Position numbers and translations under genes: made by a program. The notes beneath the pieces are model-generated. The model did no database searches and was not told the origin of the DNA. It was given only the letters and a program-made list of their open reading frames with translations. Below, in pieces: positions 16,950 to 53,399 of a stretch of 64,000 bases of DNA. How positions within the stretch are numbered: position 1 is the first letter of the stretch; the number at the start of each line of letters is the position of its first letter. Origin of the DNA: Eledone cirrhosa (lineage: Eukaryota); assembly GCA_964016885.1 (NCBI GenBank), contig OZ024743.1:68014001-68078000 (forward strand), read 5' to 3'.

Positions 16950-17142
16950 ATGGCGGTGAATTGGCAGTATCGGTAGAGGGTCGGACGCCATGCTTTGACG
17001 CATAGAGTTACGGCCCTTGCCATTCTGAGTTCAAATCCCGCCGAGGTTAACTTTGCCTTTCATCCTTACGGGGTCGATAAAATAAGGTACCAGTAATACA
17101 CTGGGAAATTGCTGGCCTTGTGCCAAAAGTAGAAACAATTAA
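16950..17142 (+). mobile_element. SINE family A, full length
   Basis: GGCGGTGAATTGGCAGTATCGGTAGAG...GAGTTCAAATCCCGCC...GGCCTTGTGCCAAAAGTAGAAACAATT. Confidence 0.9.
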
Positions 17143-17802
17143 TATATATATATATATATATATATACGCACTCACACTATCCACACACCCTACTACCACA
17201 ACTAACCCTCACCCACACATCCACTCTGACCACCCCACAACTGACATCACTAACCTCCTCGACCCCACGCACACGAACACACACCATCACACACACACCT
17301 ATGTACACAAACCACTCTATACACCCAACCACCACTAACCCTCATTTACACACCCGCTTTCAACCCTTTCCCCACCATATATAATACTAACACCCACTAA
17401 CACCCCCTTTACCACACACACACACTAATCCAACTCTCCCAACTCCACCCTCCAACACCCTTACACGCCACATACCCTTCCACCACTTGTTCATTTTATT
17501 GATTATTTTTATGTATATTTTTATTTTTATTTTTATTTTTATTTTTATTTTTATTTTTATTTGTTGTCCTACCCCATTTTTTCGAAATGTCATTCCACCC
17601 CTCCTCTACACACCCTCACAACTCTCTTCCTACCCAATTTTCTCCCGAAGAAGGGCTTATGCCTGAAACTTTGCCCCCCCCCCCCCCCCCCACACACACA
17701 CTCTCAAGAGCGTGAACCTAATAAACCTTTTTTTTTCTGCTCTCTGTTTTTGTTCCCGTCCAAATTTTCACTATATATATATTTAAATGTTCACTATATA
17801 TA

Positions 17803-18017
17803 GGCGTGTGGCTGATTGGTTAGAGAACTGGATTCGCAATCGTGAGGTTGTCAGTTCGATTCCTAGACCGGACGATGCGTTATATCCTTGAGCAAGACAA
17901 TTTATTTCACGTTGCTCCCTCTACCTGGAGTTGCGACCAATAGATAGTATTAGCAATTGGAAAGACCAACAGAAACATTGTTTCTTCGGTCCGATTTGAC
18001 GAAAGTCGATCGATAAA
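17803..18017 (+). mobile_element. tRNA-derived SINE family B, full length
   Basis: TGGCTGATTGG A-box, AGTTCGATTCC B-box, CCTTGAGCAAGACA core; matches 21-736. Confidence 0.8.
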
Positions 18018-18945
18018 TTATATTTATATATATGTGTGTGTGTGTATATGTGTGTGTGCGTGTATATATATGTATGCACATGTTTGTGCATATATATACA
18101 TGGATGCATTCTAGCTGTGGGATACCACTCACAATCCACTTGTCAAACTGATGTTACATTTGGAAATATTTGTTTTCGAAGCTGCACAGTTTGAACTAAT
18201 TCAGAACCCCGTAGCTACGAAGCTGATTTCTCCACCACATGGCTAAGTGAAGTTCGAAACTTTGTATTAGTTACTAAGCGATAGGGTTAAATGGAATAAT
18301 GACGTCTCACGAGAAACTTCTTTTTTTTTTGCTGAGATAGGAACGTCAATATTCTTTCTTCCACAGGGTAATAGAAACTCATCCAAAATTTTATGCGCTT
18401 CACTAAATAAGTATTTTTTTCTCTTCCAATGCAAACGGCGATCACTAGTTGTATTACTGATTTATAGAAGACTGAATATATTTTACATCCAAAGCAACTT
18501 GGCAGATTCTTCGACATTAACGTCCATTTCTCTACTGCGAATATATACTGAAAAATAACAATAAAAAAACACCAATAAAAATATATGTATATCTGCGGAT
18601 ATTTTATTGGAATATCAAACCATTTCTTAATTTTCTCTTACCAATTCCACTAGCTGACAATATGGCATTAGAGATTCTCTTTCTTAATGTCTCATATTTC
18701 TTTAGACCGTAAAAGTTGCGACAATAAATATTTACGCCATAAATATAGACGTATCTGAATTTTCTCTTCTGAAATTTGCAATCAAATCAATCTGGGGTGC
18801 CTCCACACACACGCAAGCGCTGCACACAAACACAATCACACACAGACACATACGCATATGCACACATACACACGCACACCAAAAGCACCACTACGCTCTA
18901 CATAGGTAGAACAAATAGTCAAGCATATATACATACACACACAGC

Positions 18946-20049: not shown

Positions 20050-20129
20050 CATACATGTGTGCGTGTGTATCACAGGTTCTAGTCCTGTAGAAGCCATTTC
20101 TGTATTAAATATACATATATATATATAAT

Positions 20130-21805
<1,676 letters not shown>

Positions 21806-21863: not shown

Positions 21864-21866
<3 letters not shown>

Positions 21867-23366: not shown

Positions 23367-23370
<4 letters not shown>
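21864..23370 (+). repeat. Direct duplication with ~1.0 kb period and an internal ~250 bp subrepeat
   Basis: 21864-22370 is nearly identical to 22865-23370; 22480-22625 resembles 22735-22875. Confidence 0.9.
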
Positions 23371-23422
<52 letters not shown>

Positions 23423-25552: not shown

Positions 25553-25593
25553 CACACACAAATAGACACACACACACACATATATATATATAT

Positions 25594-27728: not shown

Positions 27729-27773
27729 TATGCCCTTGAGAAGCCCAACTGGGCGAAACGTACGTAGGTGATA
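27729..27773 (+). ncRNA. Penelope pLTR hammerhead motif with U3-A8 core (copies at 31070-31114 + and 25809-25853 -)
   Basis: TTGAGAA-GCCC(AACT)GGGC-GAAA-CGTACG-TA-GG; palindromic stem III; stem I short and imperfect. Confidence 0.62.
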
Positions 27774-31166: not shown

Positions 31167-31213
<47 letters not shown>

Positions 31214-31832: not shown

Positions 31833-32195
31833 TTATATGTATATACGTATAACGAGAGAAAGTATATATATATATATACAAATAAAGATTCAGCGCGAAT
31901 CGCATTTCGGCGGGCAGGAAAGGCGAAGCGAAACGCAAAAATCAGAAATGATACTGGTAAAGTGTTCAATAGTTACAAAAATGTAAACAATGTGTTAAGA
32001 AGCCATACAAAACTGAAAAGGTGGTCAAGAAGGCATTAACCACCTAAGCCAAAAACCAAATCAAGCTAAACAAGTCAAAACAAAATAAATGATAAAAAAT
32101 AAATGATAACCAATAAATGATAACCAGTATGAGTGTATGTGTATATGTATGTGTGCGTGTGTGTTTGTTTGTCTGCATACATATATATATATATA

Positions 32196-32385
32196 TGGTG
32201 GTTTGGCAGTATCGGTAGAGAGTCGGGCACCATGCTTTGAAGCATAGAGTTACGTCCATTTATGATCTGAGTTCAAATTCCGTCGAGGTTAACTTTGCCT
32301 TTCATCCTTACGGGGTCGATAAAATAAAGTACCAGTAATGCACTGGTGATTGCTGGCCTGGTGCCAAAAAGTTGAAACAATTATT
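32196..32385 (+). mobile_element. SINE family A, full length
   Basis: Same head, core and tail as 16950-17142. Confidence 0.88.
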
Positions 32386-33605: not shown

Positions 33606-34800
33606 GGTTGGTGGATTGGCAGTATCAGTAGAGGGTCGTTCGCCATGATTTTCAGTACAGAGTTACGGCCCTTTTTCCTTCTGAGTTCAAATCCCGCCGA
33701 GGTTAACTTTGCCTTTCATCCTTACGGGGTCGATAAAATAAAGTACCAGTAATGCACTGGCATAATTGCTGGCCTTGTGCCAAAAGTAGTAACAATTATT
33801 ATAATTGTAATTATTATGAGTTTAAATCCAGCCGTAGTCAATATCAACTTTTATCTTTACGGGGTCGAAAAAAATATATCAGTCACGCACTGGGGTCGAT
33901 TTAATCGACTTCTTTACCCCCAAAATTGCTTGTCTTGTCCCGAAATTGGAAACCATTACTATTAAGAGTCCAAATCCCGCCGAGGTCAATATTTTATTTC
34001 ATCCTTCCAATTTCAATAATATAATGTAACTAAAAAAAAACAAAAAACAAAACACTCTGGGGCAAATTTAATCGATTTCCTTTTCCTTCGAATAAGCAGG
34101 TGTTGTGCCAAATACAGAAATAGTCACTGTTGTGTGTTTAAATAGATATAAGAACAACTTTCCCTTGCATACTGTGGTCAATAAAATAACTACAAGCCGA
34201 GTGCTGGAGTTGAATTGACTCATGAATTCCCCTTAATTTTTGGGCATATGCCTCAGTTAGAAATGATGATGATGATCATCATCATTATCATGATGATCAT
34301 CATCATGATTGTCATCATCACTATCATCATCAGCATCATTATTATTTTGGGGGCTTTCTCTATAAGTCACCCTCGGTGGTATCCCTGCTTTTGGGGGATT
34401 TGTTATGTTTTATTTTAAATGTTTATTGATACGTTTCTTTATAAAACTTTCTCACACAAAAATCACCACTGTGTGCTGTCCTGTACCCTCCATATTACCC
34501 TCTTATTTGAAGCCCCGGGTGGCTAATAAAGAAACCATTATCATTAATATTGGGTTGTGGATTAGTAATATCGGTAGAGCATCGGACATTAAGCTTTACG
34601 GCAGAGAGATACGGCCCTTTACGTTCTAAATTCAAATCCGGCAGAGCTTAGCTTTGCCTTTCATCCTTGTGAGGTCGATAAATTAAAGTAATAGTCACGA
34701 ACATGGTTCGATTTAATCGAATTTCCCTTTTCCAAAAAACATTGCTGGCCTTGTGCCTAATTTAGAAACCATTATTATTATAATTATTATTATTATTATT
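33606..34800 (+). mobile_element. Head-to-tail stack of SINE-A copies and fragments plus one Tx1-like 3'UTR fragment
   Basis: SINE 33606-33800; fragments ~33818-33963, ~33966-34125, ~34160-34265; LINE 3'UTR ~34345-34545 ending GTGGCTAATAAAGAAACCATTAT; SINE 34552-34800 with (TTA)n tail. Confidence 0.78.
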
Positions 34801-35008
34801 GGTCTGTTCGGACGCATTTTTGCTCGCTCCCAGTAAGTCGTTTTATTTACCTGTTATAATCATTTGTTGTTTAATATTTCTTGCTGTGTAAGGGATATAA
34901 GCCCTTGGACTTTGCCCTGTGAAGAGGAAAGTATAATATGTGGGCCTTTTGGCCCAAATATTTGAACTATATTTGAACATTTTACTTTTAAAAATTAAAA
35001 AAAGAAAC

Positions 35009-36759
35009 ATGGCTGAGCCACGGCCCTCAGCAGTACGTCTGTTGTCGTGTGACAACGGCATAAAAGTCGAGAGGAGGGTTACAGAAATTGATACAACAAA
35101 CACCACCACAAACAACGTGAACAAAGACAACAACACCAACAACAGCGTTTGTAGCAGTAGCAACCATCAACAACAAGACCAGTAGCAGCAGTAGCGGCAG
35201 AAATAATGATGCCGCTGCAAAAGAGGCAACTTCTTTCGCAGGTGTGGCCCGAAATATAGAGACAGTGATAGTCACGAAGAGATGGAAGTCGCGAGAGACA
35301 TGGTGACAAGAAATGACAATAGAGTTACCCTGAAACCTCAACCCTATTTCTTCAAAGTCCAGCAGCTGCGCACGGTGACTTACCGCACCGTAAGCAAAAT
35401 GTCACATCGGGTGGAGAGAGCCACGGAGGCTCAAATTCAAAAGGACTTGGGGTGTGTCTGGGCGCGCAAAACCCACACCACTCGAGGCAAAAAGTACGCC
35501 ATAGTAGACGTATTTTTCGCTAGCCCAAGAGGCTAAGTCTCACTCTTTGGAAACCATAAAGAGTGAGGAGATAGTCTTGGTGCCCTGCTACTGCGGGCAG
35601 AAATTTGTGAGGGTCAAAGTGACCCAGCTAACGACCGACGCTGGCCGCGTCTGTACTTGCTGGAATCAAGGAGAAGACTACCATACTGCAAGTACAGAGA
35701 ATGGGAAGAGACAACTGGTCAGGAATAGGCATGCAAATAGTTATACAAACTTACCAGGACTGCATCGAGACCATCCCAGATATCATAGATATCGAGGAAA
35801 GACTCCAACTCCCTATAAACATGGAAGGAAGGCGCCCAAAGTGCTATCTCTGTGGGCAGAAGGCTTAAGCCAGGACCTTCTTCCGGCAGATAACAGCCAA
35901 GAAGAGCCGCCCCCCTACTTCTGACGCCTGATCCGTAACTACCAAGAGCAGGGCAGGCAACAGAGGCAGAAGACCCTTCCATGGAGAGTAGGAGGGCAAC
36001 GTCCGTGGCACCCATACCAAAGCCAGGGACAACTAAAACAGCGGCAGAAGTGGCGGCAACACCAACAGTTGCAGTAGATACACCGGCGGCAAAATCGCCA
36101 GAGCGGGCTCCACTACCACCACCAACAGCAGTGGAGCTCATACCCCTCCCACACACACGGAATCTGACATGGAGTATGAGGCGGGAGAGAATTGGCAAAC
36201 AGTCTGCCAGAAAAAAACAAAAAAGAAAAAAAACCCTAGCTTCACCTTCCTAAAGCGAAGGCAATGAAAGAGGGGTAAAGGCTGAAAAGAGACTTGCAGC
36301 AACACCACCACCATCACCATCACCACCACAAGCATCACTACTAACAACAACCACATCACCACTAGCATCACCAAAAACACCAACATCGCAAACACAACAA
36401 AGCACACACATCCAAAAGCAACAACAAAAAAACAGCAACAAAACCACCACTCCCCCAAAGAAAGTACACAGCCATAAACATGGCAAATAAAGAACTCTTA
36501 CAACATAAAGCAGCACACAGAATCACAGAAGACAATTGCTATATCCCACCAACACCAAGAACTCTCCCGAAAAATATAAAAAATCATTGAAATTAAAATA
36601 CAACATTACAAAATTTTAAAAGAAAAATCCCCCAACGCAGTTGGAGACTTCAGAGCGTCGGTTACCAAGAGGATATACATCGACATCATCTTGGAAACAA
36701 CCATGACCAGCCAAAGAGACGGTTCTACTGTCCCTTCCCCCCACGATCAAGGTAAGTGA
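35009..36759 (+). pseudogene. Element 1 ORF1 (RRM-like region, CCHC, P/T-rich linker, C-terminal domain), frameshifted
   Basis: MAEPRP..; LRTVTYRTV..RVERATEAQIQKDLGCVWARKTH..KYAIVDVFF; EGRRPKCYLC. Confidence 0.75.
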
Positions 36760-36791
36760 TCCTTTCTCACTTACCCAGTTTCTCATCCATC

Positions 36792-39700
36792 ATGGCCGTA
36801 TCTAGAATAGGCAGTATAAATGTACGTGGCCTGGTGTCATCTTGGAAGCAGGGCCACCTGCTCAACAACCTCAGGTCACTAAACATAGATGAGGTGGCCA
36901 TTAACGAGACCGGAATCTCCGAATCACAAGCCTTAGCACTGATTTTCGGCGGCTACGATGTATACGCATCTCCCAGCCGTCCCGGTTTTGGGGGAGCAGT
37001 TGCTGTGCTTTTTCGGAGAGGTTTGATTTCGCCATACGGGCCATCTTCCTAGAACCAGAAGATAACTCGGCGGTGTTGGACGTGACCGGCAGCGAAGGCA
37101 ATGCTTTCATGCTAATAGCCGTCTACGCCCCAACAGGGGCAGGACGACCAGTTTTCCCCAGACGTCTAGAGACCTTTCTTGGAACGTCCCGCTCTTTGGT
37201 GTTAGTGGGCGACTGGAACGGTATCTTAGATGCACGCTGGGATTATGTGAGGATAGTAGACAGGGCAGGAGGGTGTAAAATCCTCAAAAACCTTCTCAGA
37301 CGTTTTGAACTGTCTGACAGGTATAGACTGGGTTATCTGAATGTGCCAATGTGGACATGTGCAAACCGCATCGGGTCATCGAGTTCGTATTTAGATAGGA
37401 TATTCTGTAAGGAAACAGATGAGGTTAGTGTAGGTGTCCAAAATTTAATGTAGTCGACTACACGGACCACAAATTTGTGATCTGTGAAGTTGACTTAGAT
37501 AGACTCCATAGGCAAGGGCCCATCTACAGGAAGCTGAACGCGTCGTTCCCGACACTCAAAGCATACAGAGATCGGATTAGCGAATTAGTTAAGCGTGCGT
37601 AGACGGGTGCGATCGTCAACAACAGGTGGTGGTTTACCCTGAAAAGGGCTATTAGAGTAAAATCGATAAGGTTTAGCAAAGGAGTAGTGATAGAGGGAAA
37701 TAGAGTAGCGGGAGAGTTAGTTAGAAAGCTAGAAGAGACGTTTAGGACAGGCATCGCAACCGACGTGCTTGCGGTGAGATTGTCACTCGACCAATTCTTC
37801 AATGCAAAGTATGAAGGCTGCGTTGTCAGAGCTAGAGCACGTGTACTAGGACACGAGGTGACGAACGCCGTTCAATGGGCCCGGGTGCTGGAGGCGTGAC
37901 GCGCTAACAAGTCCACAATTCGGTCTTTGCCTGATCAAAACGGGCGCATGTTGCTCGAACCCCAGCAGATGTGGTCGACTTTTCAACAACAGTTTGCTCA
38001 ATTGTTCGGGAGCGGCGTCGGGCCGGATCGGTGTATGGACTTCGGTGCATACCTCGACGGCTCTCGACGACCGCAGCGCAGTGCTGCGAAAAGCCGATAA
38101 CAGTAGTTTTATGAGCCGGGGAACGGTGGCGCCGCTGTGAAAAGACCTGAACAAGTGGGATGTTATAGACAACTTCAGGTCCATAACTCTGCTAAACGCA
38201 GAGTTTAAGATTTTGGCCAAGGCGTTACCAAAGAGATTGGCGCTTGTCGTCTGTGATCTGGTGGGAGAGGCGCATACATGCGCCATTCAGGACAATTTCC
38301 ATCCACGACAACCTCCATCTCATGCGATACATCATAGAGAAGGTGGTTAAGGAACTTGGCCCGAGGGGGGCTATGATCAACTTGGATCAATCTAAAGCAT
38401 TTGATAGGGTCGACCATCGGTACCTCGCGGCGGTCCTCAAGGTGGCCGGTTTAGGCCCGTTTTAGGGGCTGGATCGCTGTGATGCACAGCGACATCTGCT
38501 CGATTGTGAGTGTGCATGGTCACCTGTCGCAGCCTTTTGGCATCATGCGCTCGGTCCGACAGGGTTTCCCACTCTCGTCCCTCATGTACGTACTGGCCCT
38601 CGAGCTGTTACTGCACAAATTGGAGACGATGAGGGCGATCCCATGGGAATTGGGATGCGGGAGATCCGTATCACTTTATGCCGACGACGTCACCGTGGTG
38701 GTCTCGAGCACCAAACATGTCCAGATGCTCGGCACCGCTCTCAAGGAATACGAAGCGGGGACAGGAACAAAGATAAACAAGGAAAAGTCGGTGGGCTTGC
38801 AGCTCGGCATTTGGAGAGGGAAGTCCATGATGTCCGACAGCGTCGTGGAGCGCTGGACGGAAGGACCGGTTAAATTGCTCGGGGTCAGGTTCGGTCCAGA
38901 CCTCCTGATGGAGAAAAGCTGGAGCCAGCTGACGAGCAGGGTGGCCTCTCTCACCCAGAAATGGGCCGAGAGGAGGCTGTCTCTGAAAGTTCCGGCGGAG
39001 GTGGCGAATGCGTACATAGCGTCCGTCATCTGCTACCGCCTGACCGTCGTACCTTGCCCCCGCCCAACTCTGTCCAAAATGGAGCGCCTTTTCTTCCGCT
39101 TTTTGTGGAATGGACATGCTCACATGGTCAGACGATCCGTTTGCTGTCAACACCCGTTACGTGGACGACTAGGCATGCCGTGGCTGATGATGCGCAAACA
39201 TGCGCTGAGGCTGCGACATCTCTGGTGTTTCCTTGACGGTGAACAGGTGTGGTCGCCGTTTGCCAGACGAGCTTTTCCCCTGCTCGTCTCCTCGTTGGAG
39301 CTGCAGTCCTGTATCAGGAAAAGACCGAGGGATAGCACTTGGAAGCTGGAATGTCTCCAAGCGCTCACCACCCTCTACCGGCTGGGCACTAGTATCGATG
39401 GAACTTCCACCTCGGCGTCCTATAGAGGGCTAGTGGAGGGAAAGCGTAACGACGTTCTCGGGGAGACCTTGGGCGTCGAAGACGATCAGCTGTTCGCTCT
39501 CTTCAAGAGAACTTTCAGACCGGGGCCTATGGACAACTTCCATAAATCCCTGGCTTGGCAGTGCTACCGGCGAGCGTTGCCGGTTCGAGATAAGCTCTAC
39601 AGGCACGGAGGTGCTGACAGCCGAGCCTGTCCGAGATGCGCACAGGGTGACGAAACCCTCCTGCATCCACTTATTCAGTGCCCGAGGATTTGGGACTTGT

Positions 39701-39845
39701 GGAGCTATGTCGAACAGCTGCTGTCCCGTGTAGAACGGATCCGGTTATCGACTGAGTCCATTGTGCAGATAGCCCCGCCATCCTTCTTTAAAGAGGAGGA
39801 AGGGCAGGCAGTTTTCATCTGCCATGTGGCCATTGGAAAAGTGAG
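36792..39845 (+). pseudogene. Element 1 ORF2 (APE-RT-zinc knuckle) with stops, frameshifts and internal deletions
   Basis: IGSINVRGL, AVYAP, VGDWN, LDQSKAFDRVDH, SVRQG, YADD, CPRCAQGDETLLHPLIQC; segments missing near 38100 and 39840 relative to elements 2 and 3. Confidence 0.9.
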
Positions 39846-40103
39846 AGAGGGCGCTTGCCCTGGTGGTCAGGGTGGCTGTGATCTTTTGTGTGGTTTTCAC
39901 CACAAGTGACCGTCGGAAGTTTCCCACTTCTTGGGGAAGTTTTGTTGTTTGAATTTTTTTTAATTTCTAGCCCGATTCTGTTATAACCTGTTTACACGAC
40001 CAAAACCCACTTTGTATCGTCCTGTAATGTCTGTGCCGTCTCTAATGTTTTTCTTCGTGTCAGTCCTTGTGGCCAATAAAGAAACCTTTATTATTATTAT
40101 TAT

Positions 40104-40197
40104 GTCGATAAAATAAAATACCAGTAATGTACTGAGTGATTGCTGGCTTTTTGCCAAAAGTAGAAACGATTATTATTATTATTATTATTGTTGTTAT
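40104..40197 (+). mobile_element. SINE-A 3' fragment in the tail of element 1
   Basis: GTCGATAAAATAAAATACCAGTAATGTACTGAG..GCCAAAAGTAGAAACG-(ATT)n. Confidence 0.8.
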
Positions 40198-41035
40198 TAC
40201 TCTTTGAGTCTCAGTCATTGATGTTAGTTAACTGGAAAGTTTGTTAAAATGAATATCAAGCCACTACCTGCAGCCTCAGATATTCAGGACGTATCGGAGG
40301 TTTCTTGCTGTTCCGAGCAAGCATGCCTTTTGAAGCGTTCGAAAAAGTGTGAAGGGGCCAATTTTCTTTAACCATCCCAGGAAACTTTTTGAGATAGTCC
40401 CTAGTGCGCCTATGACAATCGGGATCACTTTGACTTCATGGCAGTTCCACATCCTTTTTACCTCCCACTTTAAGTACTGGTATCGGTTAATTTCCTCCCT
40501 CTCCTTCTCTTGCACTCTCGTGTCGAATGGGCAGGCCACATCCACAATCAGGCACGATCTTTTTTCTTTGTCCACAACCACCAGGTCAGGTCTATTGTGT
40601 TCCAGTTTCTTGTCCGTCTGTATCCTAAAATCCCACAGCACCTTCACCTGATGGTTTTCTATCACCGCCTCTGGCTTATGCTCATACACTTCTCAGAATG
40701 TGGTAAATTGTTTACTTTGCATAGGTGCCAGTGGATCACCCTGCCCATCACATCATGTCTCCAACCCTTATAGTGAGTCTGCGCTAGGTGTTTACACTCG
40801 GATAAAATGTGAGCCACAGTCTCCTCTCTCTCTCCACAGATCCTGCACAGTGGGCTAGCCTGCTCCTTGTAAATATGGTGTTTCAACCACTTCGTTTTGA
40901 GGGCCTGCTCCTGCGCAGCCATTAACATTCCTTATGTAGCCTTTTTAAGGTCTCCTCTTTTCAACCAGTTCCATGTCTGTGGATCTCTAAATTCAGTTTT
41001 CTCAAAGAAGGTACTATGAAGGGATTTTTCCTGAA

Positions 41036-41036
<1 letters not shown>
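40198..41036 (-). mobile_element. 5'-truncated R4/Dong-like non-LTR retrotransposon (restriction-like endonuclease end)
   Basis: AAQEQAL, CRICGEREETVAHILSEC, RHD, NRPDLVVVD..IVDVACP, VIPIVIGALG, QKACLLGTAR; (TAA)n on both sides of its sense strand. Confidence 0.88.
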
Positions 41037-41071
<35 letters not shown>

Positions 41072-41278
41072 GGCGACCTACGTAGTAAATCGTATCATCG
41101 TGAGCTCCGCAAAGGTTTGTTATTTCCGTTTGTTAAAAATTGTCATTTATGGAAAATTTTATTGTTAACTGTTTATAAGCGCACATACATTGTTTTCCGA
41201 AAAGGACACCCAAAAAGATTGGGGCATTGTGCCCAAAATTTAAACTTCTATTATTATCAAAAAATTTCTTTGAAAAAA

Positions 41279-43283
41279 ATGGCTAATTCACCTCTGCACG
41301 AAGCAGCTGAAAGCCTTCCTCACAAATTAACACCTCACACCGACACCACCATTGTAAATGTTACTACGTTTGCCAACACAAAAAAAAAATATAAGCACTA
41401 GTAATATTTTAAATTTGTCTCAGGCAGACATTCATTTCCCGCCATTATCAATGACTGCAGGTGTTAAAGCCTCCACCACCACCACCACCGCGACAACCAC
41501 CACCACCTCCACCACCACCGCGACAACAGAAACAAAAGAAGAACAAAATAAATTAACTCGTGATGTCGAAATGAAATCAAGCAAAATGGACTCTTCCCCA
41601 CCAAAGACGACTGACGTCACCACCACCACAACTGAAACTAAAATTAATATTAACACAAATAACGATAGCATCAACAACAACAATGACATTATAAAACCGA
41701 CCCTCAGTTTCGCCAGAGTAGCAAAACAATTCGAAGCATTTACGGTAACTCAGGAGGATTTAGAAAATGCCAAACAAATGATAAAGAAAGATGGGTACAG
41801 GGTCAGCCTCACCCCCCCCCCCACCTAATAAAATGGAGCATCGGCGCCTATGCACCGTGTCGTATCGAACAATAAATGTAAAATCGCGCCGAGTGGAACG
41901 GGCATCCGAGTCCCAAATCCAAAAAGCTTTAGGACATGTGTGGGCAAGAAAAACCCACATCAGACGTGGGCAAAAGTATGGAACCGTGGACGTGTTCTTT
42001 GAAACACTAGAGGAGGCTAGAGAACACTCCATGGCCCCATTAAAAAGTGACGACTTCACACTCGTCCCAAGCTATTGTGGCCAGAGACTCGTAAAGATCA
42101 GGATGACCCACGTTCCACCGGCCATCGAATTTCCCTGGCTAATAGCGGCCGTCCTCGCCGGCATCGAAGCCAACACGAAAATAATAGCAATAGCAAAAGA
42201 AAAGCAGGAAAACTGATCCGGATCTGGGATGGAGCTCCTGAACCAAGCGGACCAAAAAAGCATTGAGGAGATCCCAGAGGTAATAGACCTCACTGACGGC
42301 AGCCACCTCACGGTAATTGTCGAGGGCAGAAGACCTAGGTGTGTCGTTTGTGGTGAAGAACCCACCTAAGGGCTTTCTGCCCTCAGGCTAAAAGGTTGAG
42401 TCCACCTCTCCTACCCACCCCTGAGACACAACCATCAACACCACCAGTAGCAGAGATGGCAGCAACAAGTGTAGCAGCAACAACAGAAGCAACTATAACA
42501 GCAACAACCCCAGCAACAGTAGCAAAACCAACACCACCACCACCACCACCAGCAAAACCAACACCACCACCACTCAACGCTTCAGAACTAGCACCAGCGC
42601 CTACACCATCCACCACGCCACAACCAAAACTAACGGCTGTGGAGGATTTTCCACTCCCCGGCCTATCACAACTGGAGACAGATTGTGACGACGAGGAGTG
42701 GGAAACGATATCCGGAAAAAAAAAAAGAAACCAAAAAAGAAAAAATTCTCTTCCTTCCCCCTCCAAAAACAAAATACAGAGGGAAACAAATAAATTAAGA
42801 AACAAAAAAGTTAGGACAGATATGCCACCATCCACACCAGCATCACCAACCCCATCAACCCAAACACCAACACAATCACCATCATTAACCCCAACACCAC
42901 CATCACCTACACCACAAAAGTCACCAAAATGCGAAACAGAAACAAACCCACAACAAACGCAAACAAAACAAGACAACCAAAACGATACACACTACACAGC
43001 ATTAAATTTGAACAACAAGCAATTATTACACTACATCCAACACAACACCAGCATCACAGAAAAAGACTACACAACAGCCCCAAATTTCACACCACCTCCA
43101 CACATACAAATCACTCGCATCACACAGAAAACGTACATGACACTAAAACAAAAATTCCCCAAAGACATCGGAGACTTCCGACAAGCACTCTCCAGGAGGA
43201 TTTATGAGGACATCCTTCCTGAGGAGGCCACAAGCAGTGAAAAGGATGGAAAAACCGTCTTTCCCCTACGAGAAGTAAGGTAA
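41279..43283 (+). pseudogene. Element 2 ORF1, several frameshifts, some in homopolymer runs
   Basis: SFARVAK; RVERASESQIQKALGHVWARKTHIRRGQKYGTVDVFF; EGRRPRCVVCGEE..H...C; P/T-rich linker; C-terminal NNKQLLHYI..LKQKFPKDIG. Confidence 0.82.
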
Positions 43284-43317
43284 GTGGTCTTTCCCATCTT
43301 TTCCACTCCTTTTCAAC

Positions 43318-46300
43318 ATGTCCTCACTCAGAATAGGCAGCATAAATGCGCGTGGCTTGGGGTCGTCATGGAAGCAGGGCCACCTGCTCAACGACCTCAG
43401 GTCACTAAACATAGATGCAGTGGCCATCAGCGAGACCAGAATCTCCGAAGCACAGGCTTTCGCACCGATCTTCGGCGGCTACGATGTGTACGCATCTCCC
43501 AGCCGTCCGGGATCGGGGGGAGGAGTTGCTGTGCTTTTTCGGAGAGGTTTGGGTCTTGCCATACGGGCCATCTTCCTGGACCCAGAAGGTAAGTTGGTGG
43601 TGCTGGACGTGACCAGCGGAGACGGCCAAGCTTTCAGGTTAGTGGCCGTCTATGCCCCGACAGGAGCAGAGCGGCCTGATTTCTTCCGGCGTCTGGAGAC
43701 CTTTCTTGGAACGTCCCGCTCTTTAGTGTTAGTGGGCGACTGGAACGGGATCTTAGATGCACGCTGGGATCGTGTGAGATTAGTGGATAGGGAAGGAGGA
43801 TGCAAGAGTCTCACCAACCTGCTCAAACGTTTTGAACTGTCTGACAGGTACCGAATGGATTTCCCGAATGTACCAATGTGGATTTGGACAAATCGCATAG
43901 GGTCATCCAGATCATATCTAGATAGAATATTTTGTAGGGAAATAGATAGGTCTAGCATAGGCTGTCCACAATTCAAGATAGTCAGCTACACGGACCACAA
44001 ATTCGTGATCTGTGTGCTTGATTTAGATAGGCTTCATAGACGAGGACCCGGCTACTGGAAGCTAAACGCGTCCTTACCAGCGCGCAAGGCCTACAGAGAC
44101 CGGATTAGCGAACTAGTTAAGCGGGCATTGACGGGGGCCATCGTCAACAACAAGTGGTGGTTTGCTCTGAAAAGAGCAATTAGAATAGAGTCCATTAGGT
44201 TTAGTAAGACTTTAGCAATAGAGAAAAATAGAGCAGAGGGAGAATTAGTTAGAAAATTAGATGAGGCGCTTAGCAAAGGCATCGCGACCGACATACTTGC
44301 GGCGAAATTGGCCCTTGACCAATTCTTCAATGCAAAGCACGAAGGCTGCGTTGTCAGAGCTAGGGTGCGTGCTCTCAGACACGAGGGGACGAAAGCCGTT
44401 CAATGGGCCCGAGTGGCGGAGGCGCGTCGTGGCAACAAAGCCACGATCCGGTCTTTGGTGGACCACGACGGGAGCATGCTACTCGATCCCGGGCAAATGT
44501 GTGAAGCTTTTCAGGGACACTTCGCTCAACTGTTCGGGGGCAGTGGGGGTCGGATCGAGGGATGGACTTTAGTGTCTACCTCGACGGACTGCCGCGGCTT
44601 TCGGCCACTGAGGCGGAGTGTTGCGAAAAGCCGATAACAACGGCTGAAGTACGGGATGCAATGACTAGTTGCACAAGGGGAAAATCGCCTGGTTTGGATG
44701 GTCTGCCCTATGAACTTTACTTACAAGTGCCAAACTTGTTCGGAGGCCTCTTGGCGGACGTCTACTGCAACTGGCAACAGAACGGGAGAATTCCCAGCTC
44801 TGTGAGCCGAGGAGCGGTGGCGCTGCTGAGAAAGGATCCGTACAAGGGGGATAACATAGATAATTTTAGGCCCATATCTCTGCTAAACACAGAGTTCAAG
44901 ATTTTGGCCAAGGTGCTAGCAAAGAGGTTGGCGCTTGTCGTTGGTGGTCTGGTGGGAGAGGCACAGACATGCGCCATTCCCGACAGATCCATCCACGACA
45001 ACCTCCACCTCATGCGATACATCGTAGAGAGGGTAGCTAGGGAACCTGGCACGGGTGGGTGTTTGATCAATTTAGATCAGTTGAAAGCCTTCGATAGGGT
45101 CGACCATCGTTACCTAGCGGCAGTCCTGAGGGCGGCTGGCTTTGGGCCCGTCTTCAGAGGCTGGATCGCTGCCATGCACAGCGACATCTGCTCTGTAGTG
45201 AGAGTGAACGGTCACCTTTCGGAACCGTTCAACATCATGCGCTCGGTCCGCCAAGGATGTCCCCTCTCGTCCCTATTGTACGTATTGACTCTCGAGCCAT
45301 TACTGCACAAACTGGAGACGTTGAGGGGGGTCCCGCGCGAACTAGGATGCGGAAGATCCGTGTCAGCATATGCCGACGATGTCACCGTAGTGGTGTAGAA
45401 CGCCAAACACATCGAGGCGATCGGCACTACAATAAGAGAATACGAAGCGGTGACAGGAGCAATGATCAACCAGGAAAAGTCAGTGGGCCTGCAGCTCAGC
45501 ACCTGGAGAGGCAGGTCCATGCTGTCCAACAGCGTCGTCGGGCGCTGGACGGACCGGTTAAATTGCTAGGGGTCTGGTTCGGTCCAGACCTCCAGACAGA
45601 CATAAACTGGGACGAGGTGACGAGCAGGGTGGCTTCTCTCACCCAGAAATAGGCCGAGAGGATGCTATCCCTGAAAGGTCGAGCGGAGGTGGCGAATGCG
45701 TACATCGCATCCGTCATCTACTACCGCCTGACCGTCGTACCTTGTCCTAAGCCCCGCCTGACTGGGCTGGAGCGTTTGCTCTTTCGCTTTTTGTGGAAGG
45801 GACGCGCTCCGATGGTCAGGCGGTCCATCTGCTGTAAACACCCGCTACATGGAGGGCTGGGCATGCCGTGGCTGATGATGCGCAGACACGCGCTAAGGCT
45901 ACGACATCTCCACCTCTTCCTCGACGGTGATCAGGTGTGGTCGCCGTTTGCTAGACGCGTTTTTCCCCAGCTCGTCTCCTTGACGGAGCTGCAGTCCTGG
46001 GTCAAGCGAAGACCGAGAGGGAGCGCTTGGAGACTGGAATGTCTTCAGGCGCTCACAGCCCTCGACCAATCGGGCAATGTGATCGGTGGAAACTCCACAT
46101 TGGCGTTCTATAGGGGATTAGTGGAGGGGAAGAGCGACGACGTACTTGGAGAAACTCTAGGCGTCGACGAAAATCAACTAGCTAATCTCTTCGGAAGGAC
46201 TTTCGGGCCGGGGCCTATGGACAACTTCCAGAAATCCCTGGCCTGGCAGTGCTACCGAGGAGCTTTGCCAGTTCGGGATAAACTCTACAGGCATGGAGGT

Positions 46301-46732
46301 GCCGTCAGCCGGGCATGTCCGAGATGCGCGCAGGGCGACGAAACCGTCCTGTACGCACTCGTCCAGTGTCCGAGCATTGCTGACTTGTGGGTTTATGTCG
46401 AACACATGCTGTCACGTGTAGGACGGATCCAGCTATCAGCTGAGTCCATCGTGAGGATTGCCCCGCCCCCTTACTTTAGCCGGGAAGGGCAGGCAGTTTT
46501 TATCTGTCTGGTGGCCATGGCGAAAGAGATAGTATGGTGGACACGTTTGAAAGGGCTGAAGACGAGCACTTACCACTTCGGTGATGCCCTGATTAACTTT
46601 TTCAAATTTCATTTGAAAAGGAAAATCAGGGTAGAGAGGGAAGTGCTCTCTACCCAGCATTTTGTTGAAAGATGGGTGAGAGAAGCAAGTATGGCCCGAA
46701 TGAATGGGCCTTCTCTGAGTATGTGTCTGTAA
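43318..46732 (+). pseudogene. Element 2 ORF2 (APE-RT-CCHC) with 2 frameshifts and 2 premature stops
   Basis: GSINARGL, ISET, VYAP, GDWN, YLDRIF, TDH; KSPGLDGLP, FRPISLLN, KAFDRVDH, SVRQGCPLS, YADD; CPRCAQGDETVLYALVQC. Confidence 0.93.
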
Positions 46733-47191
46733 ATTAAAGGTGGAAAACTGGGAGAGGGCACTTGCCCTGGTGGTCAGGGCCACTGTGGTCTTTTAATGGG
46801 CTTTCTCCACAAATGTCCCTCGGAAGTCTCCCCCCCTATTGTTATTTTATTTCAACCTCTGTTTTTTTTACACGCAGAAATGCCCATTCGTACCGTCCTG
46901 TATTGTCCTGTACTGTCCTTAATGTCTACTTTATGTAAACCCTTGTGGTTAATAAAGAAAACATTATTATTATTATTATTGACGAAAGTGGATGTACGTT
47001 TTTTGAAGCTCCGTGAGTAACAATTTTTTGAGGATTAATTGTGGAGAATTGTTTATTTTTTTGTACCGCTGAAGCATTATAAGACATTCATTTGTATCCT
47101 GTGAAGGAATAACTCATAATATTTGGGCCTTTTGGCCCAAATATTTGAACTTTATTTTGGAAAAATAATAATTTTTTTTACTAAAAAAAAC

Positions 47192-49101
47192 ATGGCGGAG
47201 CCACGCCCCCTAGAGGCGGGTCTGCTGTCGTGCAACGGCGACTTGAGCGTTGAGAGGAGAGGTGGGGCGAGGAGCGCCACCAGCACGAGTGTGAGCAGCG
47301 ACAGTGCCAGCACAAACGGGCCGAGCGGCGCGGAAAGTGGTAACAGCGACAACACCAACACCAACAAGCCGAACAGCGCAGAAGGTGGTAATAGCGAGAG
47401 CACCAACAAAACGAACAGCACAGAGAGTAATAGTAGCGACAGCAGCAGCACCAACAAGGCCAACAGCACAGAGGGTAACCACGACACAGGGGAGAACAAC
47501 AACAGCAATAGCAGCAGCAACACCAACAAGAACAACGACAGTGACAACACCACAAGAACACCTTCGCTGCTTTGGCAGCGGCTAAAAGGAGACCATGCTA
47601 CAGCATCGACTTAACCAACAGAGAGGAAAAGTTGGCCCAGGCCTGGAAAATCATAAATCAAGAGCAGACCTGGGCAAAATTAACTGTCCCGGCAGAAGCC
47701 ATTGAGGCAGTGGAAAAAAGAACGGTGCATTTCAGATGCATCTCAGTAGAGACAAAGAGGGCAGCGATAATCGCCCAAGCTGATATAGAAGCCGCACTGA
47801 AATACATCAGAGAGGACACAGACTTCATAGAGAGGGGCAGGCAATACGGCACCGTTTCGGTGCTGTTCAAGTCTGAAGCCCTCGCTGTGAAGCATTCAAT
47901 GACCCCTTGCAAAACCAGCAAGGTCATAATGTACCCCTCCCACATGGGAAAACGAATAGCACGTGTGCACATTCCCAGGATTCCACCAGGACTTGATATG
48001 TGGTGGCTCCTGGGTTGCGTAATCGTGGAAGGAACGGATACAGTCCCGGTAGAGGCAACGAGAACTGCCAGGGACGACTGGTCCGGGGTTGATCTGGAGA
48101 TACTGCTCCAAATCAGACCCGAAAACGTAAAAGCAATCCCGGACCACATCCGCCTCCAAAACGGGAGGGTGTTGCATATAATGACTGAGGGCAAAAGGCC
48201 GCATTGTTTCCTTTGTGGGGAAACGACACACTTGCGAGCCTTCTTCCCTCAACTGCCGAAAAGCGCAAGGGGTCGAAAGATTCCACTGCTGGCGACGCCG
48301 GGACAAAGACCACCAGCAACACCGTAAACAATGGAACCACCAAAATTGCACACCCAGGGGGGAAACGAGGAAAGCTCTCCCATTCCCCCTCCCCCCCAAA
48401 ATACACACACGAACAATAACATAAACACTCACTCAGACACAAACACGCTCACAGCCACAGACCCCTCATCCTCCAGCAGTGAAGATGAGGGAAAACCAAA
48501 GTCCCCCAAAATACAAAAAACAAAACACAAAAAAAAAAAAGAAATCCACAAAGCACAAACACCCCCACAAAAAAATACACACACCACCCACACAAACATT
48601 TTCCCCACAGCATCACCAACACAACCACCAAAATCCCCCAAACGCAAACAAGCTAAACAGACACAAGAACAAATAGACACACAAACATCAGAAACTACAG
48701 ACACCCCACCCACAACAAACGCAGACACAATAGAAACAACACTAACAAAGCTATCACCACCACAATCACACGAACAAATAAAACCCGAGCAACAAAACAT
48801 TAAAAACTTCGTGCTTGCCAGAAGGGCCAACAAGGAATTGATGGCCCATGTAGCACGAAGCACAAACATCGAAAAAGAGGGGGAAACATTTGAAGCGAGC
48901 ACATTTCGCGTACCAGATAATTTGCTTCTGATGCGAATGTCGCTCGCTTCATACAAAGAAATTCGAAAGAGCTTTCCTCGGAATGTGGGAACCCCGAACG
49001 TAAAACCCACTTCAAGACTATTAAAGGGGTTCCCAAAAGAAACCCCACAAACCATGGAGGTCGAACCACCCGACCTTCACAAGACCCCGGAAGGTAAGTA
49101 A
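47192..49101 (+). pseudogene. Element 3 ORF1 (frameshifts near 47560 and 48250-48330)
   Basis: MAEPRP; N/S-rich; RGRQYGTVSVLF; EGKRPHCFLCGETTHLRAF; C-terminal ANKELMAHV..IRKSFPRNVG. Confidence 0.82.
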
Positions 49102-49130
49102 ACCTTTCCTCTCCCATTCATCCTGCCAGC

Positions 49131-52100
49131 ATGGCCATAAGAGTAGGAAGTTTAAATGTTCGTGGCCTGGGGTCGCCCTGGAAGCAAGGTCACTTGCTCA
49201 ACGACCTCAGGTCACTAGGAATGGATGTAATTGCCATCAGCGAGACCAGAATTTCCGACACACGCGCACTGGCGCCGATTTTCGACGATTATCAGATCTT
49301 TGCATCTGTTAGTCGGCCGGGAATGGGAGGTGGAGTGGCTGTGCTGTTTAGGAAATGTCTGGATCTCGAGGTAAGGTCAATCTTCCGGGATCCTGACGTA
49401 AAGTTGGTGGTCCTGGACGTGAGCAATAGTGAAGGTGGTGCCTTTAGACTGGTGGCCGTCTACGCCCCTACTGGGGCCGGTCGGCCGGACTTCTTTAGGC
49501 GCCTGGAAAACTTTCTGCTTACGTCTCGCCCTTTACTGTTAATAGGGGATTGGAATGGCATCTTAGAAGCACGCTGGGATTGTGTGGGAGTATCTGATAG
49601 GAGCGGGGGTGCAAAAGCCTCAAGTACCTGATCAGCCAGTTTCAACTGTCTGACAGGTACCGACTAGATTTCCCTAATGCGCCAGTATGGACCTGGACCA
49701 ATCGCATAGGGTCATCTAGATCGTACATAGATAGGATTTTCATTAGGAAAAGAGATAGAAATAGTGTAGGATGTTCACATTTTAAAACGGTTGCCTATTC
49801 AGATCACAAGCTTGTGATCTGTATGGTCGACCTAGATAAGACACGTAGGTTAGGACCTAGCTACTGGAAGCTAAACATGTCGTTTCCGGCACGTAAAGCT
49901 TACAGGGACCGGGTCAACAACTTAGTTAAGCAAAAGTTGACAGGGGGAGTTGTCAACAACAGGTGGTGGGGGGCTCTCAAAAGAGAGATTAGAGCAACCT
50001 CGATAGGATTTAGCAAAGAAGTAGCAATAGAGAAAAATAGAAAGGAGGAGGGGCTGATAGCTAAGTTAGACGAGGCTATTTGTAGTGGCATTGCAACAGA
50101 CGTGCTAGCGGCGAGAATGGCACTAGACCATTTCTTCAATGCGAAACACGAAGGTTGCATTGTCAGAGCTAAGGCGCGTGCTCTGAGGAACGAGGGAACC
50201 AAAGCTGCCCGATGGGCTCGCTTTGCAGAGACGCAGCGTGGAAATAAAACCACAATTCGGTCTTTGACGGATCGAGATGGACACGAACTGAGCGATTCCA
50301 AGCAGATGTGTGAGGCCTTTCGCCAGCACTTTGCTCGATTGTTCGGGAGGATGGGTGAGTCGGAGACGGCGGCGGACTTCAGTCCCTACCTCGACGGCTT
50401 GCCACGCCTCTCGACCGCCGACGCTGAGCGCTGCGAAGAGCCGATAACATCAGTCGAAATTCAGGACGCCCTTGTCGGCTGCTCGAGTCGCAAGTCACCC
50501 GGTTTGGATGGTCTGCCCTACGAGCTTTACGTAAATATGCCAGACTTGTTCTCCGATCTCCTCGAAGCGCTCTACTGCAACTGGCAGCAGAACGGGAGCA
50601 TTCCCAGTTCTGTGAGCCGTGGCGTAGTGACGCTGATAAGGAAAGACGAGAACAAGAGGGACACACTAGATCATTTCAGGCCCATAACCCTGCTCAACAC
50701 AGAGTTTAAGATTTTGGCCAAGGTGTTAGCGAAAAGGTTGGCGCTTGTCGTCAAAGATTTGTTTGGGGAGGCGCAAACTTGCGCAATCCCGACCAGGTCC
50801 ATACACGACAACCTCCACCTCATGCGATACATCATAGAGAGGGTTGGGTGCAAACCTAGCTTCGGTGGGGCTCTGATCAATTTAGATCAATCGAAAGCAT
50901 TCGATAGGGTCGACCATCGGTACTTGGAGGCTGTCCTCGAGGCGGCTGGCTTCGGCCCCGTCTTCAGAAGCTGGATCGCTGCAATGTACAGCGGCATCTG
51001 CTCGGTGGTCAAAGTTAATGGCCTCCTCTCGGAACCGTTTCAGATCTCTCGATCGGTCCGTCAAGGGTGCCCTCTCTCCTCCCTTCTGTACGTATTGACT
51101 CTTGAGCCTCTACTGCGGAAGCTGGAGTTGCTGCAGGGCATCCCGCTCGAACCGGGACGTAGAAAGGCTGCGTCCGCTTATGCGGACGACATCACCGTGA
51201 TGGTGTCGGACACCTCGGAAATCGAGGTGATCCGCACCCATTTGGAGGAATATGAAAGGTTGACGGGAGCAAAACTTAACCCGGAAAAGTCGGTGGGCTT
51301 GCAGCTCGGCACCTGGAGAGGCAAGTCCATGCCGTCCAACAGCGTCGTTGGGCGCTGGACAGACGGACCGGTAAAGTTGCTCGGGGTTTGGTTCGGACCA
51401 GACCTCCAGGTGGATAAGAATTGGGACGAGGTGACGAGCAGGATAGCCAACCTCACCCAGAAATGGGCTGAGAGAAAGCTATCACTGAAAGGGCGGGCGG
51501 AGGTGGCGAACGCGTACATCGCGTCCGTCATCTACTACCGCCTGACCGTCGTGCCTTGCCCCCGTCCACGCCTCGCCAATTTGGAACGGCTCCTTTTCAA
51601 ATTTTTGTGGAGGGGACGGGTCCCGTTGGTGAGGCGGTCCATCTGCTGCCAGCACCCTCTTCGTGGAGGGCTGGGCATGCCGTGGCTAATGATGCGCAGA
51701 CATGCGCTGAGGCTGCGACATCTCCAGATATTTTGCCTAAACGGTGAACAGGTGTGGTCGCCGTTTGTTAGACGGGCCTTTCCGCAGCTCATCTCTTTGA
51801 CTGAGCTGCAGTCCTGGGTCAAGAAGAGACCGAGACTGGGCGACTGGCATCTGGAATGTTGCCAGGCGCTCACTGCACTCTGCAAGGTGGGCAATGCGGT
51901 CAGTGGAACTTCCACTCAAGATTTCTATAGAGGATTAGTGGAGGGCAAGTACGATGACGTACTAGGAGAGGCTCTAGGCGTCAACGAAGTAGAACTGACC
52001 AGTATGTTCCGGAGGACTTTCGAACCAGGGACGATGGATAACTTCCAGAAATCCCTCGCTTGGCAGTGCTACCGGGGGGCGCTGCCGGTGCGGGATAAAC

Positions 52101-52549
52101 TCTACAGGCACGGAAGTGCTGTCAGACGAACCTGCCCGAGATGCGCGCAGAGCGACGAAACCGTTCTGCACGCACTCGTCCAGTGTCCGTGCATTGCTGA
52201 CTTGTTGGGTTATGTCGAACAGCTATTGTCGCGTGTAGAACGGATCCGGCTATCGTCCGAGTCCATAGTGAAGATTGACCCGCCGCCTTCTTTTGGTCAG
52301 GAAGGGCAGGCAATTTTCCTCTGCCTGGTGGCAGTAGCGAAAGAGGTTGCATGGTGGACCAGGTTGAAAGGACTGAAGACAGACACTTTTCTCTTCGGCC
52401 AATCCCTCATCAACTTCTTCAAGTTTCACTTGGAAAGGAAGGTGAGGGTGGAGAGAGAAGTGCTGCCCCCCAGTACATTTACTGAAAGGTGGGTGAATGT
52501 AGCGAGAATGGCCCGCGTGAGTGGGCCTACTCTGATCATGCGCCTGTAG
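49131..52549 (+). CDS. Element 3 ORF2 (APE-RT-CCHC), single frameshift in a G-run near 49605-49610
   Basis: GSLNVRGL, ISET, VYAP, GDWN, then YIDRIF, SDH, KSPGLDGLP, FRPITLLN, LDQSKAFDRVDH, QGCPLS, YADD, CPRCAQSDETVLHALVQC; 911 aa open stretch. Confidence 0.92.
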
Positions 52550-53399
52550 GCTGGTGAATTCGAGAAGGAGAGGGGTGCCCTTCCCGGGTGCCCTAGGAGT
52601 GTCGGGTGGCTCAGGACTGGTGGGGTGCTTGAGTCAACCCTGGGTGGTGATCCCTCTTATTGGGGAACTTTCATTGTTGTATTTTTATTGTTATTTTGTT
52701 TTTTGTTATTTATACTTACTCGATCTCTATGTAAACCCCCACTGTCCCTGTCTATTGTGTTGTCCCCTATATATCGGCCCTTGTGGCCAATAAATGAAAT
52801 CATTATTATAATTATTAATATTATTATTATTAGTAGTAGTAGTATCCTTCTCACGATTTGTGTTTAAACGCTACGCATTTAATAAGAAAAGACTAGAAAT
52901 TCCACTAGTTCTATATGCCAGTCATGTGGGACCGAATCAAATGCATTCCTGTTGTCATTTGAAGCATTTGATGTTCTCATTTTCTCCTCATTTTACTTGA
53001 CATTACATGTACATTTTCAGTTCTTCATTTCCATAGTAATTTGGTCAATGGTTTATGAATGGTTGCTAGACAACTGATGAAGTGAGATTGGTTTGACTGG
53101 TTAGATGCGGTTTTTTTTTATTGTTGCTCTCTATTATTCCATGTTGTGGGCTGTTTAATAAAAAAGCGGATCATATCTGTTGCCTTCCAGTGCAGTATGT
53201 CAAAATAAAACTAACAAGAACTGGGTAGTTTCTATGCTAAGCTCTTCCCAGATACACAAGCTGTTTAAATCAAACAATTTACATATGGCAATGTTTATAT
53301 TTATATTTTCATTTATATTGATTTTACATATTTTTCTAATCGATTCCCATCAACTTTATTAAAATAGTTTCAATTAAATTATATATTGTTTGCATTAGA

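Follow-up and report, generated by a model that had tools for sequence, protein, structure and literature searches.

The question raised by this locus is which long interspersed element (LINE) mobilises the short interspersed element (SINE) called here SINE-A, and whether the SINE is recognised through its 3′ end. The locus is a stretch of 64,000 nucleotides of Eledone cirrhosa (assembly GCA_964016885.1, contig OZ024743.1, positions 68,014,001 to 68,078,000, forward strand), the whole of which is called the window; it is repeat-rich eukaryotic DNA with 39% GC and many AT and CA microsatellites. The first-pass annotation had matched the SINE-A tail to the 3′ ends of three Tx1-like LINEs (elements 1–3) and had proposed that these LINEs mobilise the SINE by stringent 3′-end recognition. 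In our study, SINE-A and the L1/Tx1-type lineage of these LINEs were found to be a probable stringent-type SINE/LINE pair in an animal. The partnership was well supported at the level of the lineage, by a shared end of 22 nucleotides, a covarying stem and the same hairpin in distant relatives, but the part of the proposal that names elements 1–3 as the actual partner was weakened.

The four tail sequences quoted at first were all found on the plus strand, in SINE-A at 17114–17137 and in elements 1, 2 and 3 at 40063–40086, 46939–46962 and 52776–52801, respectively. Further LINE 3′ ends were located at 557–578 and 34515–34536 (fragment Lx), together with a short tail-like piece at 56023–56044. 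The SINE and five LINE 3′ ends align without gaps in a single register, directly before the ATT run. The equivalence of the tails holds for the last 22 nucleotides before this run and fails further upstream: in 55 SINE × LINE pairs, the ungapped identity averaged 56% in the last 22 nucleotides (best pair 18/22) and was 22–31% in the 40 nucleotides before them. Shuffle tests on 15 pairs, for which 3 of the 11 SINE copies were used, gave P<0.05 for the last 60 nucleotides in 7 pairs and for the last 30 nucleotides in 13, the signal being diluted at 60. The (ATT)n ending of the SINE was present but short, with 1–3 perfect units in 9 of 11 copies and a single unit in the copy at 17114–17137; the terminal ATT overlaps the start of the target duplication.

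A 22-nucleotide matrix was built from the five LINE ends alone, with the ATT run excluded. Eight of the 11 SINE ends were among its top 20 non-LINE positions of about 128,000. With 300 column-shuffled LINE matrices, at most one SINE end entered the top 20, and none of the 300 reached eight. In the reverse direction, a SINE-trained matrix placed its best site at offset 0–1 from the 3′ end in 6/6 LINE tails, with scores of 7.1–13.9 bits in four of them. The SINE profile, run over the window, gave 20 SINE hits, and two LINE tails were the only other matches. The likeness of the SINE and LINE tails exceeds chance.

The shared 22 nucleotides open with a C-G pair that closes a CUUGU loop on a predicted stem of 3–4 bp. 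The stems differ and yet they pair, as AACC/GGTT, GGCC/GGCC and GTC/GGC in the LINEs and as TGGC/GCCA or GGC/GCC in the SINE. In an alignment of 20 rows, which included degenerate copies and hairpins of the 5′ untranslated region (UTR), the covariation was 0.458, compared with 0.187 after shuffling and no more than 0.184 when the register was slid, and 85.5% of the cells were paired; it was 0.431 when the foreign ends described below were added. The share of paired cells was 93% in 15 hand-picked clean rows, from which Lx and the degenerate SINE copies had been left out, and 85.5% is the fair figure. RNAalifold on the five LINE UTRs alone predicted the same hairpin. In the folding check, the hairpin was part of the minimum-energy fold of 4/5 LINE tails but of 3/6 SINE tails. 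The fixed loop and the compensatory stem changes agree with the stringent recognition proposed at first, and the marginal energy of the hairpin does not.

A hairpin was also found in the 5′ UTR of all three long LINEs, about 55 nucleotides upstream of the ORF1 (open reading frame 1) ATG, on the plus strand. It is TGGGCC-TTTT-GGCCCA in element 1 (34941..34956), the SINE-tail-like GGGC-ATTGT-GCCC in element 2 (41222..41234) and a 12-bp stem with a TTTT loop in element 3 (47118..47145). The hairpins of elements 1 and 3 are strong (z −3.7 and −5.7, respectively), and that of element 2 scores 8.1 bits to the SINE tail. The 5′ UTR hairpin may be a second binding site or the relic of a captured upstream 3′ end.

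The same 3′ hairpin was found in distant relatives. A scan of genome contigs gave 57 loci, 51 of them on contigs CAXXMW01. These contigs are filed under a bacterial metagenome-assembled genome but contain head-to-tail arrays of intact eukaryotic two-ORF LINEs, with a period of about 6.4–6.8 kb and no ATT spacer between the units; they are likely host contamination of the bacterial assembly. The arrays are also a source of intact members of the L1/Tx1-type lineage. Their ORF2 is 40–44% identical to those of the window, and their two families are about 70% alike. In the reverse transcriptase (RT) tree, they form the sister clade of the window elements inside a 27-row clade (99/99), one family standing beside a cuttlefish protein, and the closest row beyond the clade of the window elements lies at a distance of 1.11 substitutions per site. 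The 3′ UTRs of the CAXXMW01 and window elements do not align (E≥0.29).

In the CAXXMW01 loci, GGC-CTYGT-GCC was present once per element in 45/51 and the loop CTAGT in 4, the remaining 2 loci being incomplete. GGC-CTNGT-GCC stands shortly before the terminal AATAAA in 49/51 foreign loci, with a polarity identical to that of the SINE stem. Twelve of 13 near-matches to the SINE 11-mer sit 18–22 nucleotides 5′ of the terminal AATAAA (9 representative loci, 167,732 positions). When a 13-nucleotide matrix from 8 foreign ends was run on the window, SINE hairpins took ranks 1–7, 11 and 12. The CAXXMW01 LINEs contain a second, sequence-variable hairpin between the conserved hairpin and AATAAA. The other 6 loci (29–33% identical) were incomplete or lacked the hairpin motif by eye, and the SINE body was absent from the foreign loci. 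A 42-nucleotide foreign-end matrix was dominated by C runs and ranked only one old SINE, in third place; extended upstream homology therefore stays a lead. Judged from these ends, the hairpin is an old feature of the lineage's 3′ end. The SINE combines the stem polarity of the sister clade with the spacer and ATT tail of the resident LINEs, which makes the link to the lineage stronger and elements 1–3 as the partner weaker.

The three resident LINEs are near full length, on the plus strand and all broken. Their ORF2 are 70–80% identical to each other, and the elements are therefore separate families. Element 1 (34801..40086, 5286 bp) has its ORF1 ATG at 35009, ORF2 from about 36792 and its tail at 40065–40086; it contains many frameshifts and stops and a deletion at the border of ORF2 and the 3′ UTR. 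Element 2 (41070..46962, 5893 bp) has its ORF1 ATG at 41279, a broken ORF2 at 43318–46732 and the hairpin AACC-CTTGT-GGTT at 46938–46950. Element 3 (46981..52801, 5821 bp) has its ORF1 ATG at 47192 (broken, with a CCHC-like knuckle), ORF2 at 49131–52549 with one frame break near 49600, and the hairpin GGCC-CTTGT-GGCC at 52776–52788. The remaining LINE pieces are also on the plus strand. They are a 5′-truncated copy of the element 2 family (164..578, 91% identical, 3′ end at 557–578), which lies between two ATT runs and splits a second SINE; the 3′ UTR fragment Lx (34346..34536), with the hairpin AGCC-CCGGGT-GGCT at 34511–34524 followed by AATAAA-GAAACC; and an isolated piece resembling a LINE tail, GGCC-CTTGT-GGCC, followed by an (ATC)n run (56020..56044).

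ORF2 was found to contain an N-terminal AP endonuclease (PF03372), an RT domain (PF00078) and a C-terminal zinc-finger region (PF13966). The best structural matches of the endonuclease were L1-EN. Compared with solved structures only, the RT matched L1 ORF2p with E 3e-46 and R2 with E 3e-21. In the RT tree, which holds no labelled reference, the RTE-like element of the window is a far outgroup. The closest named relative of the element 3 ORF2 was an Argonauta hians protein (67%), and a cuttlefish protein was 37% identical, which by itself makes an octopod host probable; named Tx1 elements were absent among the ORF2 homologues, and naming the clade through homologue names failed. ORF1 matched the CCHC and ZCCHC3-type RBD clusters of the Atlas at 0.90–0.93 and is a Type I ORF1, not Transposase_22; one foreign relative has an intact CCHC knuckle in its ORF1. 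A CCHC-type ORF1 is linked to Tx1 in non-mammalian animals in the part of PMC5203782 that deals with it. We class elements 1–3 as putative L1/Tx1-type LINEs, in the L1 group by their domains and RT, and as Tx1 by ORF1 type and target preference.

SINE-A has the traits of its class: it is 180–219 nucleotides long and non-coding, several copies are 5′-truncated, and target duplications are present, clean in 2/11 copies. The young copies are 85–97% pairwise alike and an older subfamily about 75%; the bodies of the two differ by about 25%. Both an A-box and a B-box motif were present in 6/6 full-length young copies, on box consensus sequences of RNA polymerase III (Pol III) that we assume from general knowledge, and the element would be transcribed by Pol III. 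T4 runs were absent from 4/6 of these copies. No tRNA match was found for the SINE-A head by ARAGORN (0) or Rfam (0 at E≤10); its ends pair with each other, but without a cloverleaf. Rfam gave 0 hits at gathering level over the entire window, and E-value scans of the SINE and repeat B regions gave microsatellite or hairpin noise only. Membership in the Meta domain, an initial guess, was unsupported by eye; no match by eye was found between SINE-A and the bivalve Meta, V and CORE sequences contained in the supplement of PMC4824008.

SINE-A and the LINEs have similar target sites. The motif ATTAWT was present within 25 nucleotides upstream on the same strand in 5/5 LINEs, 9/13 SINEs and 5/9 dispersed SINEs, compared with 2.8% in the background and 8.5% where the DNA is AT-rich (for the dispersed SINEs, binomial P 4e-4); the motif was chosen after the flanks had been seen, the LINE copies are one locus cluster and the numbers are small. 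The two clean SINE duplications are 16–18 bp long and start with ATTATT; an AT run obscures a third, and 8/11 copies are uninformative. These lengths fit the L1-clade range (7–18 bp) better than the RTE range (7–15 bp), as the two are given in the relevant part of PMC6007223. The stacking in the same orientation described at first was found in the array at 33.6–52.8 kb, where 6 SINE hits and 4 LINE ends are 10/10 on the plus strand, but not outside it, where the 14 SINE hits are 6 plus and 8 minus. One-way stacking is a by-product of insertion into ATT runs and was rejected as independent evidence. A 5′-truncated LINE with a restriction-like endonuclease (RLE), which we take to be Dong/R4-like, lies inside an ATT run of the array (40190..41036, minus strand) and is an internal control: it matches the R2 endonuclease weakly (E 0.0015), has the opposite polarity and has a sense tail of (AAT)n. 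As this fragment is reversed in the same ATT run, polarity is specific to the element.

These results are consistent with a mechanism that we consider fairly probable and that is drawn in part by analogy, in which ORF2p of the lineage attaches to the CUUGU stem-loop, makes a nick in the AAT strand of ATT-rich DNA and starts reverse transcription on the AUU tail. The last 22 nucleotides of the SINE would reproduce the 3′ end of the L1/Tx1-type lineage. ORF2p of the lineage would bind the predicted short stem with its CUUGU loop, the loop presumably being read specifically and the stem as structure only. The endonuclease would then nick the AAT strand, and the freed AATAAT end would anneal to the AUU tail of the RNA, as in the target-primed reverse transcription of L2 and L1. 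Every insertion would regenerate the ATT target, and a one-way array could result. The LINE UTRs contain 3–5 T4+ runs upstream of the tail, and these runs may, speculatively, be the reason that no more than the end of the LINE was retained in a Pol III element.

Several points weigh against this mechanism and the pairing behind it. The match of SINE and LINE is short (22 nucleotides), the element 3 tail scores −3.2 bits with the SINE matrix on account of a 1-nucleotide insertion, and the tail scrap scores below zero. The compensatory cells represent about 4–5 events only, and the shuffle control ignores kinship. With z-scores of −2.2 to +1.1, the hairpin is thermodynamically marginal and its energies do not single it out; it would therefore need a protein to hold it. 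In the young SINE, a competing stem is predicted that could sequester the tail hairpin. The second stem pair is C-G or U-G in the resident LINEs and G-C in the SINE, and the foreign matrix places no resident LINE 3′ hairpin among its 25 best positions. Repeat B also ends in (TTA)n without a hairpin. The clean SINE duplications are few, and those of the LINEs are unmeasurable within ATT runs. According to a passage of PMC6007223, the first base of the duplication can be determined by the tail of the RNA itself; priming by the RNA tail alone can give ATT-initial duplications, so that a target in common is no proof of a common nuclease. In the age check, which was to compare periods of activity, only a loose overlap was found, with young SINEs at 85–97%, one LINE pair at 91% and few copies. 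No CR1 or L2 elements were seen within the window for comparison.

In a modified form that is compatible with the same model, a related L1/Tx1 family outside the window, with a GGC/GCC stem, would be the partner, and elements 1–3 would be cousins that share its target. We give this form a little less than an even chance. Such a family would show the GGC/GCC stem followed by AATAAAGAAAC-(ATT)n. In polarity, the SINE stem agrees with the two foreign families and not with elements 1–3, the C-rich tract and A run of the older SINE resemble foreign family B (22/27 nucleotides, E 0.27), and Octopus vulgaris has 80 L1-Tx1 families. The spacer, the GAAAC and the ATT tail of the SINE match the resident families instead, whereas in the foreign ones another hairpin is present and the ATT run is absent. 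Stems are moreover exchangeable in L2, according to the experiments of PMC4176376 that concern them, which takes weight from the difference in polarity.

The tail could also be a relic of capture, with relaxed mobilisation for which the AUU tail is sufficient, as poly(A) is for mammalian L1. The weak hairpin energy and the hairpin-less repeat ending in (TTA)n would suit such a relic, and L1-clade elements rarely share SINE tails (3/58 pairs in the tabulation of PMC3472496). We regard it as unlikely, because the hairpin has been retained, with compensatory changes, over an RT divergence of about 1.1 substitutions per site in which the rest of the UTRs can no longer be aligned, the foreign families keep it without an ATT tail, and it is present in both SINE subfamilies despite the difference between their bodies.

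Mobilisation by a CR1, L2, RTE or Dong/R4 clade, with the resemblance to the L1/Tx1-type tail being secondary, is quite unlikely. These clades supply most known partners in the compilation of PMC3747384; CR1, RTE and Dong-R4 were recently active in O. vulgaris, and the RLE element sits within the same ATT run as SINE copies. A better match of the SINE tail to another clade had been named at first as the result that would overturn the pairing, and the rival ends in the window do not provide it. Eight rival 3′-end regions (RTE-like, RLE, Penelope-like, repeat B and the second SINE, the labels of the first three being our assumption from motifs) score at most 0.7 bits with the SINE matrix, the RTE-like, RLE and Penelope-like ends reaching −13.7, −11.7 and −4.1 bits, respectively. 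The opposite polarity and (AAT)n sense tail of the RLE element and the long SINE duplications also speak against these clades. A chance likeness of short A-rich ends, or an origin of the SINE tail in the element 2 hairpin of the 5′ UTR, is very improbable and largely refuted by the rank statistics, the terminal position and the independent recovery of the SINE hairpins by foreign ends, although only 22 nucleotides are shared, unrelated palindromic repeats at 1008 and 23461 reach 9–11 bits and the 5′ UTR hairpin itself comes to 8.1 bits.

The lineage pairing with SINE-A can be set beside known systems. Three SINEs among 58 tabulated pairs have L1-clade tails, all of them plant or algal in the tables of PMC3472496 and PMC3747384; the hosts named in PMC3472496 are maize/sorghum and a green alga. 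The maize ZmSINE2/3 with LINE1-1_ZM and the Chlamydomonas SINEX-3_CR with L1-1_CR, as described there, are similar in that an L1-clade LINE and a tRNA-type SINE share a hairpin 3′ end with compensatory changes and a conserved loop. They are from plants and algae, share 50–80 nucleotides and have A or T tails, whereas the present pair is from an animal, shares 22 nucleotides, and has an ATT tail and ATT-directed insertion. In crocodilians, SINEU was inferred to be mobilised by Tx1-Mar, with a shared target preference and tandem insertion (PMC4494074), a link based on targets only. In that account, SINEU carries poly(A) and an snRNA head, and no LINE resembles its 3′ half, whereas the present SINE and LINEs are connected by a structured tail that both possess. 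The Tx1 families Kibi (TC)n, Koshi (TTC)n and the crocodilian (TTCC)n, in the same source, also insert into simple repeats and form stacked copies; here the target is ATT. The stringent L2 pairs (UnaL2/UnaSINE, ZfL2-1 and ZfL2-2), as presented in PMC4176376, have a stem-loop followed by a short microsatellite, with a conserved loop and an exchangeable stem, and loop-specific, stem-swappable recognition was demonstrated for zebrafish L2. Those pairs are of the L2 clade and were assayed experimentally, whereas ours has an L1/Tx1-type ORF2 and a much shorter stem and is known from sequence alone. The term 'TX1' in PMC4176376 denotes mutant protein names and not the clade.

In the openly readable literature, a scope that leaves Repbase notes and SINEBase outside, we found neither a published animal L1/Tx1 pair with a common tail nor a published partner of the octopus SINEs, and SINE-A may already have a name. 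SINEs make up 11.6% of the O. vulgaris genome according to the figure in PMC13282606. If the pairing is true, it names a driver for octopus SINEs, though one window does not give the SINE-A share of the 11.6%, and it provides a case, in an animal, of an L1-group lineage that recognises a tail by its sequence. It bears on the open question of whether recognition of a particular RNA tail was ancestral in the L1 group and was later relaxed to poly(A) in mammals. A minimal hairpin of 13 nucleotides kept across deep divergence would also be a compact test system, comparable with the solved structures of human L1 ORF2p. In its widest form, the proposal is tentative, and we hold it not quite as likely as its opposite: a cephalopod-associated L1/Tx1 lineage would have kept an ancestral stringent C-CUNGU-G signal, recognised by ORF2p whatever the terminal repeat (ATT here, none in the sister-clade arrays) and repeated in its own 5′ UTR; it would be the engine of a major part of the octopus SINE expansion and the first structured-tail SINE/LINE pair in an animal L1 group.

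The SINE-A copies are distributed over the whole window. The young, full-length reference copy is 187 nucleotides long (16951..17137, plus strand), with an A box at about +11, a B box at about +77, the body and the 22-nucleotide LINE-like tail, and is flanked by an ATTAAT(AT)n duplication; its predicted terminal hairpin TGGC-CTTGT-GCCA is at 17113..17125. Other young copies on the plus strand were found at 15866..16045, 32194..32379 and 33606..33794, the last at the left edge of the array, and at 63834..64000, where the copy is cut by the window end and stands behind the ATT tail of another repeat. A young copy with an (ATT)5 tail is on the minus strand (61023..61207). The ATT tail of the 33606..33794 copy contains an older, 5′-truncated copy (33818..33954, plus), followed by two degenerate fragments (33966–34124 and 34129–34276, plus). 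An older full-length copy (34552..34770, plus) has the best LINE-tail match (18/22) and a C-rich tract and A run 5′ of the hairpin. Another older copy (53411..53623, minus) has a 16–17 bp duplication with one mismatch starting with ATTATT. These three older copies (33818–33954, 34552–34770 and 53411–53623) contain about 30 extra nucleotides before the hairpin, consisting of a palindrome, the C-rich tract and the A run, which are absent from the young subfamily. The 5′-truncated copies are at 40104..40168 (plus, inserted in the ATT tail of element 1), 9417..9523 (minus) and 59632..59738 (minus, with a perfect 17–18 bp duplication starting with ATTATT).

The window was also found to contain other repeats. 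A second tRNA-type SINE (17772–18033, plus; 3–96 and 606–767, minus) has a 13-nucleotide motif in common with BivaCORE-SINE1 and is likely of the CORE type; one copy of it is split by the ATT-flanked LINE fragment (164..578), with an 11-bp repeat on either side. Repeat B, of about 200 nucleotides (20096–21805 and 63613–63836), ends in (TTA)n without a hairpin, forms palindromic clusters and has no Rfam match. A 5′-truncated RT element at 2895–4902 (minus), presumably RTE-like, ends before a (TG)n run. An element with RT and GIY-YIG-like motifs at 25590–31168, which we take to be Penelope-like, has inverted duplications 97–99% identical and no Pfam hit. Palindromic MITE-like repeats were found at 944–1128 and 23417–23679, at 1216–1503, at 1939–2258, and at 16707–16817 and 62261–62377; the first of these families holds a chance-level look-alike of the tail motif. 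A direct duplication of 516 bp (98%) is present at 21864–22379 and 22865–23379, and a 43-bp tandem repeat of 6 copies at 24750–25009.

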